Shown piece after piece: positions 43,001-43,588 of a stretch of 64,000 nt of DNA; position 1 is the first letter of the stretch; every line of letters starts with the position of its first letter. The translations under genes and the position numbers were made by a program. Source of the DNA: Escherichia coli (GTDB lineage Bacteria > Pseudomonadota > Gammaproteobacteria > Enterobacterales > Enterobacteriaceae); assembly GCF_013315695.1 (NCBI RefSeq), contig NZ_CP054353.1, one strand, 5' to 3'. The notes under the pieces are model-generated. The model had not been told where the DNA came from and did no database searches. It saw only the letters and a program-made list of their open reading frames with translations.

Positions 43001-43588
43001 AATTTTTCCTGTCTCCAGGCCCCAAAGTAAATAATAAAAAATTCCTAAAAACTAAGGAAAAAATATGCCCAATAAATTGGCGGTGAATGCTGATTAAAAT
43101 CAAGAAAAACTGCCATTAAGACATTGAAGTTGCTGTTTTTATACGTAGATAACAAAACGCATATTTAGCGGTTGGCAAATATCACATAATAATGTGTGTA
43201 AATTGATGGTGGATTGATGCAAATTTGTTAATTGCAATGGTGTTAGCTGCGGCCATGCGCTCAAAAAATAATCTAATATGAGCATGGGTTGACGATATAT
43301 ATTATATACTTCGTTAAGATGATTGTTGTATCTCGTTAAAAAATAAAATAATTTTTCCTTGATTGCATTTTGTCATCAAAAAAGACTTGGTTTTTCTTTT
43401 TTGACTATTCCCATCGCAGAAAACGACGCATCATCTTTAATCGATGCGCGGAAATATTTAACTTAAACAAGCGGAAATAAATAGAGCAGCTATTCAGATT
43501 ATTTTTTATGTTGGGGCTATTAAGGTTATGTTAATTGTAGCTTTGCTATGCTAGTAGTAGATTTTTGATAAATGTTTAATGGTCACAA

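Follow-up and report, generated by a model that had tools for sequence, protein, structure and literature searches.

What does an unusually long, AT-rich stretch of DNA between two divergently transcribed genes of Escherichia coli contain, and does it hold anything apart from their promoters? The window analysed here is a 64,000-bp stretch of E. coli DNA (contig NZ_CP054353.1), and its positions 43001–43588 are the intergenic region of dcuC and pagP, exactly 588 bp long. The dcuC gene (41615–43000, minus strand) runs leftward, and pagP, with the ATG at 43589 (plus strand), runs rightward. A sequence-only reading of this DNA described an AT-rich gap of about 590 bp upstream of both genes, unusually long and free of ORFs of 60 aa or more, next to a frameshifted pagP, and all of this was confirmed. 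The GC content is 31.5% in the gap and 51.8% in the window as a whole, and of all 588-bp spans in the 64 kb, the one poorest in GC falls here. It is the longest of 43 gaps between adjacent annotated genes in the surrounding 41 kb, and its longest ORF is 48 aa. The pagP gene of the window strain, a frameshifted pseudogene by its annotation, carries one extra A at 43730, a feature common to only two of 5,426 complete genomes. Small ORFs in the gap were considered and rejected: none is conserved, and two alleles lack the start codon of the 48-aa ORF.

Over 691 bases around the gap, the window matches strain AR_0013 at 100% and K-12 at 97.5%, and a longer stretch around the gap is identical in strains MSB1_4I and OZ547117. 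Neither the RefSeq record of K-12 nor that of the matching (identical) strain has annotated features in the gap. The gap is the already known and already studied dcuC/pagP control region, and it is an ordinary divergent promoter region. Very probably it is best explained as a bidirectional regulatory region, where two compact promoter modules, one per end, would be joined by a spacer of about 390 bp that differs between lineages. The anatomy, conservation and polymorphism of the region were observed directly in the genomes compared. Between species, we compared 80 species-level pagP loci, with dcuC located divergently upstream in 47 of them; within the species, divergence was measured among five E. 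coli alleles. The intergenic length is about 290 bp in Klebsiella and Raoultella, 403 bp in Salmonella, 410–465 bp in most Citrobacter and 558–588 bp in Escherichia, and both end modules are intact throughout this range.

At the dcuC end, the likely Shine-Dalgarno sequence AGGA, as read from the sequence, occupies positions 43007–43010 (minus strand), 6 nt before the ATG (43000–42998); the segment ACAGG(A/G) at this place is conserved across genera. The −10 hexamer CATATT (43062–43067, minus strand; CACATT in other genera) sits in a conserved GGCA(C/T)ATT block. It is located at the fixed distance of 22 nt after the 14-mer of an FNR site. The latter was found by a motif scan as CTGATTAAAATCAA at 43090–43103; in the direction of dcuC (minus strand) it reads TTGATTTTAATCAG, matching TTGAT-N4-ATCAA at 9 of 10 positions. 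It is the sole full FNR-type site in the gap. Since FNR motifs with one mismatch are not rare (seven in the 64-kb window), a motif match alone proves little. The site TTGA(T/C)-N4-(A/G)TCA(A/G) is kept in 43 of the 47 species loci with the divergent gene pair, and three more differ by one base; the 14-mer is thus nearly invariant from Escherichia to Klebsiella in 46 of the 47 loci. In loci where the site is kept, it is followed by the constant 22 nt and CA(C/T)ATT. If this hexamer is taken as positions −12 to −7, the center of the FNR site would fall at −41.5 relative to the predicted start, that is, at the class II position, and the spacing between the site and the conserved −10 hexamer fits this placement. 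From the position of the −10 hexamer and the FNR center at −41.5, the dcuC transcription start is predicted at about 43055 (43053–43057, minus strand), and the leader would be about 55 nt long.

For comparison with published maps, positions in U00096.2 were computed as the window coordinate plus 612,191, an offset that rests partly on the differences between two versions of the K-12 sequence. The offset agrees with published genomic-SELEX (gSELEX) positions placed inside dcuC and pagP. The FNR ChIP-seq summit at 655,298 (U00096.2), reported with one motif, maps to about position 43107 of the window; the same study places dcuC in category 1, direct activation (Myers et al. 2013). The FNR-type dcuC promoter expected by the sequence-only reading is therefore borne out by a site at 43090–43103 that is conserved across genera, with the summit no more than about 10 bp away. 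The −41.5 position was found in 19 of 23 directly FNR-activated promoters with known transcription start sites (TSSs), and the entry for dcuC reads ‘TSS not in peak region’ (Myers et al. 2013). Binding of YeiE downstream of the dcuC promoter was reported in a ChIP-exo study.

In the resulting model, the dcuC module of about 105 bp would have FNR bound to TTGATTTTAATCAG, a site whose center precedes the predicted start by about 41.5 bp. FNR would recruit RNA polymerase to the weak −10 hexamer CATATT that lacks a good −35 partner, and this recruitment would switch dcuC on under anaerobic conditions. Like class II FNR promoters, dcuC has a 9/10 site at a fixed distance from the −10 hexamer and no good −35 partner, and, according to the literature, the site is occupied by FNR in vivo in K-12 and activation is anaerobic. 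It differs from them in that the −41.5 position is a predicted one and that an additional conserved block lies upstream.

This block, conserved within the genus Escherichia, covers positions 43105–43235. Its mean pairwise divergence within E. coli is 0.03, and at least 95% identity is seen in 5,387 of 5,406 genomes. Across the block, identity to the loci of Escherichia whittamii and E1V33 drops from 0.86 to 0.57, compared with approximately 0.3–0.5 in the center of the gap. The block contains a palindrome, CACAT-AATA-ATGTG (43183–43196), that is invariant in seven E. coli alleles and kept in E. whittamii as AACAT-GATG-ATGTT. It also contains a distal element, ATTGATGC-N5-TGTTAAT (43211–43232), that is invariant in the same number of alleles and shared across genera, being present in Escherichia, Citrobacter and Enterobacter about 125–135 nt upstream of the FNR site. 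The distal element resembles a direct repeat of the response-regulator type (TGATGC-N5-TGTTAA), with 9 of 12 positions matching TGTTAA-N5-TGTTAA. A second, low-affinity PhoP box has been published for Salmonella pagP. The distal element sits roughly where this box lies, a tentative correspondence.

The block probably holds further protein-binding sites, presumably for regulators of dcuC and for architectural proteins, the distal element being one such candidate site. The picture of two modules is incomplete, as the block is conserved and has no assigned factor. The sequence-only reading would have had to be given up if no conserved blocks were present beyond the two promoters; such blocks are present, at 43105–43235 and at 43494–43507 (discussed below), and both look like protein-binding sites and not like RNA genes.

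At the pagP end, the candidate PhoP box is the 17-mer TATTAAGGTTATGTTAA (43518–43534, plus strand), located 12 nt upstream of the −10 hexamer TATGCT (43548–43553, plus strand), the latter being the conserved TAnnnT that follows the PhoP repeat. The 17-mer has three mismatches, matching 14 of 17 positions of (T/G)GTTTA-N5-(T/G)GTTTA. In the window, PhoP repeats that match this well often arise by chance, yet the placement is kept: the direct repeat GTTAAG-N5-ATT(C/A)A, followed by 10–12 nt and TAnnnT, is found upstream of pagP in 70 of the 80 species. Directly oriented PhoP boxes lie upstream of the −10 hexamer at a distance of whole helical turns, 12 or 23 nt (Zwir et al. 2012), and the 12 nt between the end of the 19-mer form of the box (43535) and TATGCT agree with this rule. 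PhoP-dependent transcription and PhoP footprints are published for E. coli crcA and Salmonella pagP. The distance between the box and the TSS is 32 bp in E. coli crcA and 44 bp in Salmonella (Harari et al. 2010). Given these published distances, the TSS of pagP is predicted at about 43558–43560, with a leader of about 30 nt. The expectation that the gap contains a PhoP-regulated pagP promoter thus holds, the box at 43518–43534 being conserved and its position in agreement with the box-to-TSS distance published for E. coli crcA/pagP (Harari et al. 2010).

The footprinted Salmonella box CTGTTTATAGTTTGTTAAG is located 23 nt from the −10 hexamer and 43 nt from +1. It is composed of a hexamer one turn upstream and the first of the two hexamers that form the E. 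coli register. In E. coli, this upstream hexamer is degenerate (TATGTT), which explains why the PhoP box is placed differently in E. coli and Salmonella (32 vs 44 bp). Compared with PhoP-activated promoters of architectures I and II (Zwir et al. 2012), the pagP promoter is similar in having a hexamer repeat with 11-bp spacing that replaces the −35 box, and differs in that its box is degenerate, with 14 of 17 positions matching. In Salmonella pagP, which belongs to architecture IV, the repeat is used one helical turn further upstream.

The PhoP 17-mer is at the same time the best ArcA-like direct repeat in the region (11 of 12 positions). An ArcA site was predicted for dcuC/crcA computationally and had no ChIP support (Park et al.). 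Because the best ArcA-like repeat coincides with the PhoP box, the box is probably what was predicted as the ArcA site. The pagP module of about 95 bp would thus consist of phosphorylated PhoP bound to the direct repeat 12 nt upstream of TATGCT, with a conserved palindrome resembling an RcsB box directly upstream of the repeat.

This palindrome occupies positions 43494–43507 (plus strand) and has the core GA(A/T)TATTC; it reads TCAGATTATTCTTT in K-12 and TCAGATTATTTTTT in the window strain. The RcsAB box has the 14-bp consensus TAAGAATATTCCTA with a GA-N4-TC core. K-12 TCAGATTATTCTTT scores 10 of 14 against this consensus, and boxes with 12–13 of 14 matches to it are seen at fixed offsets in Enterobacter, related boxes being present in Citrobacter. 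Upstream of the PhoP repeat, the offset of the core is fixed within a lineage in most Enterobacteriaceae, namely −50 in Enterobacter (TAAGAATATTCCCG), −34 in Citrobacter and −25 in Escherichia. The window strain has T instead of the core C at 43504, and this version of the segment is present in 169 of the 5,426 genomes. RcsB-dependent induction of pagP has been published, and no RcsB binding site at pagP has been mapped in published work. We hypothesize that 43494–43507 is a candidate direct RcsB site, given its motif and its conserved placement. A similar 14-mer, TTTGACTATTCCCA (43400–43413, 10 of 14 matches), overlaps an island that is invariant within E. coli (43402–43426). The motif match of TTTGACTATTCCCA by itself is at the level expected by chance, and treating it as an RcsB-type box is only a hypothesis.

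Between the modules lies the variable AT-rich center of the gap (43236–43500). Its mean pairwise divergence among the five E. coli alleles is 0.109, compared with 0.011 and 0.027 in the first 351 nt of dcuC and pagP, respectively; the local synonymous divergence pS equals 0.041 for dcuC and 0.099 for pagP. A megablast search recovers the center in only 4,236 of 5,426 genomes, and 954 of those hits have identity below 95%, while equally long queries taken from either dcuC or the dcuC-proximal half of the gap yield at least 95% identity in nearly all genomes. No alignment of the center with the other Escherichia species examined is possible, its identity being 0.3–0.5 to the loci of E. whittamii and E1V33. 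Individual strains have insertions of IS1 (at about 43438) and of an IS5-like element (after about 43540). The center therefore evolves at an approximately neutral rate, with no detectable constraint on its sequence. As about 265 bp of the gap drift neutrally, sequence features in this part should not be over-read.

The H-NS protein was flagged on the dcuC/pagP spacer in an in vitro gSELEX binding screen. Expression of pagP-lacZ is reported to rise 18-fold upon deletion of hns, with SlyA and RcsB acting against H-NS. The GC content given above makes the region as AT-rich as is expected of one silenced by H-NS. Most likely the center serves as a platform for H-NS silencing of pagP, a role suggested by its composition and the literature, and this silencing would be relieved in a SlyA- and RcsB-dependent manner. 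The simplest reading is that the center is constrained in composition and not in sequence. Zwir et al. (2012) cite pagC and ugtL, whose AT-rich regions are silenced by H-NS and offer a comparison: pagP shares with them the low GC content and reported H-NS binding and, from the literature, the 18-fold rise in the hns mutant and SlyA- and RcsB-dependent induction. It differs in that the genes flanking the dcuC–pagP spacer are ancestral core genes and not horizontally acquired, and in that the DNA under silencing is a lineage-specific expansion flanked by two conserved promoters.

Several alternative explanations of the spacer were weighed. Its AT-rich, reportedly H-NS-binding DNA, specific to the Escherichia lineage and a landing place for IS elements, might be a remnant of horizontally acquired or mobile DNA between two older promoters. 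We regard this as very unlikely: the center is single-copy in E. coli (median of one place per genome), has no phage match and no ORF remnant, and the sole ‘plasmid’ hits are non-mobilizable E. coli records of up to 4.9 Mb that look like mislabelled chromosomes. It is also rather unlikely, to a lesser degree, that the spacer holds further working promoters with long leaders, active upon displacement of H-NS, such as a distal dcuC promoter and/or an upstream pagP promoter. The candidate for the former is the σ70-like site ATGACA-17-AATTAT (43348–43376, minus strand; TSS at about 43341), proposed as a ‘constitutive’ dcuC promoter in an in vitro gSELEX screen of RNA polymerase in which RpoD holoenzyme bound the spacer (Shimada et al.). 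This minus-strand site is the only match of our consensus σ70 scan, Myers et al. (2013) imply that the dcuC TSS then known lies outside the FNR peak, and the RT-PCR signal of the predicted RNA Ssr31, described below, would fit read-through transcription. Yet the allele of SE15 (phylogroup B2) has changes in both hexamers of this distal site, so that the site is not conserved; promoter-like sites are rarer in the gap than in shuffled sequence (1 vs 4.1 expected); no TSS is listed for the gap in the plus-strand Cappable-seq table; and Klebsiella and Raoultella do without the spacer DNA and keep both end modules. The promoter that the sequence-only reading offered as an example, ttgacg...tatact (43289–43294 and 43305–43310), has a 10-nt spacer and is thus unusable as a σ70 promoter. 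The TTGAT/ATCAA half-sites that it mentioned are present, six in number, and are not clearly enriched (2.9 ± 1.6 expected, p about 0.06); the gap has only one full FNR-type site. Motif scans for RpoN, CRP, IHF, NarL, SlyA, GadE and high-affinity H-NS sites yielded nothing in the gap above the chance level. The published gSELEX peaks of RpoN and NtrC at 655,760 correspond to about position 43569 of the window, and the sole nearby σ54 match of the −24/−12 type, TGGTAAAGTTTTTGCT, is located at 43648–43663, inside pagP.

The remaining alternative is that the center encodes an independent sRNA on the pagP strand, equivalent to Ssr31 and covering approximately 43224–43518. A 295-nt sRNA of this name was predicted in the pagP/dcuC gap of Shigella flexneri 301 and was RT-PCR positive (Wang et al. 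2016). The published primers map to 43331–43350 and 43499–43518 of the window, so that the equivalent of the amplicon is 43331–43518 (plus strand). For this candidate, that study reports an RT-PCR and neither a Northern blot nor a 5’ end, and the positive signal is explained as easily by read-through transcription or DNA carry-over. The inferred span 43224–43518 folds no better than shuffled sequence (z-score −0.56), its putative terminator hairpin (−2.1 kcal/mol) is worse than that of shuffled sequence, and the segment, whose divergence is at the neutral rate, is not alignable to the other Escherichia species examined. No sequence or structure conservation above the neutral level and no match to a known family was found in the center. 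A permissive E-value search of Rfam yielded only chance-level hits inside the gap. The strong Rfam hit, to the cspA thermoregulator family, lies downstream over cspE. A promoter and an intrinsic terminator on the same strand were not found: our scan detected no plus-strand terminator in the gap, and the minus strand has one promoter-like site and, upstream of it, one weak and polymorphic hairpin resembling a terminator. This imperfect hairpin (43426–43449; about −10 kcal/mol, z-scores −0.8 and −1.6) is variable in its left arm, for which the seven alleles show five forms, two of these having a pair-breaking change; the hairpin was not found in the other Escherichia species examined. Neither folding of single sequences nor RNAalifold, applied to three segments on both strands, gave a convincing signal; the RNAalifold z-scores ranged from −2.2 to +1.1 with weak energies, the lowest being that of the minus strand of the conserved block with the DNA palindrome. 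The plus-strand Cappable-seq table contains no TSS from 653,077 to 656,393 (U00096.2), and so none in the gap, no 3’ ends are listed for pagP or dcuC (Adams et al. 2021), and the Kim 2012 supplements mention b0621 and b0622 only in the ortholog table. Compared with intergenic sRNA genes of enterobacteria, the gap is similar only in its setting, a long AT-rich gap with one RT-PCR-positive prediction in Shigella, and lacks the promoter–terminator pair, the conservation, the structure signal and the plus-strand TSS. We therefore consider an independent sRNA highly unlikely, and the suggestion that the gap can carry one is not supported. There is a small chance that, when H-NS is displaced (in biofilm, at high osmolarity, in the stationary phase or in an hns mutant), the spacer gives rise to a discrete transcript, either an sRNA resembling Ssr31 or a long alternative leader of pagP, or that 43211–43232 and 43494–43507 are direct sites for regulators not so far linked to dcuC or pagP.

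Two promoter modules joined by a lineage-variable spacer remain the preferred explanation of the gap. Its importance beyond annotation is small, and what the analysis adds are small, testable points. It provides the precise class II layout of the FNR-dependent dcuC promoter, with a predicted start, and an explanation of why the PhoP boxes of E. coli and Salmonella pagP are shifted by one helical turn. Finally, the conserved RcsB-like box could be the missing direct link that accounts for the published RcsB-dependent induction of pagP.

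Among the 80 species-level pagP loci (L003-L082), the length of the divergent dcuC-pagP intergenic region varies with the genus. Klebsiella and Raoultella loci have about 290 bp, Salmonella arizonae has 403 bp, most Citrobacter have 410–465 bp and Escherichia has 558–588 bp, and the length reaches approximately 1,000 bp in some Enterobacter and Kosakonia. In the whole window, other 588-bp spans with GC content below 36% are found only at 24.9–26.4 kb and at 38.6–39.5 kb, the latter being the citC-dpiB divergent gap.

In most Enterobacteriaceae represented among these loci, a palindrome resembling the RcsB box, with the core GA(A/T)TATTC, is located upstream of the pagP PhoP repeat, and the offset between the palindrome and the repeat is constant inside each lineage. 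In the window the palindrome occupies positions 43494–43507, upstream of the PhoP repeat at 43518–43534 (plus strand). The window strain has a T where the core has its C, and its version of this segment is present in 169 of 5,426 genomes.

The pagP coding sequence (43589–44150) contains a single additional A at position 43730, CATATATGAT versus CATTATGAT in other strains, which shifts the reading frame past codon 47. The stretch with the extra A is identical in only two of the 5,426 complete E. coli genomes; the pagP gene of strain MSB1_4I is labeled in RefSeq as a frameshifted pseudogene. Also within pagP, on the plus strand at 43648–43663, lies a sigma-54-like −24/−12 motif, TGGTAAAGTTTTTGCT, matching at 9 of 12 positions. 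The published genomic-SELEX peak of RpoN and NtrC, assigned to the dcuC/pagP spacer, is situated about 80–95 bp from this motif. Further along the plus strand, the Rfam cspA thermoregulator family matches positions 44134–44582 with 136 bits, compared to the gathering score of 78; this match covers cspE and the leader upstream of it.

In individual strains the dcuC-pagP region is broken by IS elements. Upstream of pagP, at a distance of about 150 bp, strain MINF_8D (locus L088) carries IS1 at approximately position 43438. In strain CUPF09 (locus L090), the IS5-like element ISKpn26 is inserted after approximately 43540, where it separates the PhoP box from the −10 hexamer TATGCT (43548–43553), and gives rise to an annotated “hypothetical protein”. 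The matches of strain SW071620 (H20 and H52) to the region end 27 bp upstream of where dcuC starts, at approximately 43027, which suggests an insertion or deletion that would remove the dcuC promoter in this strain.
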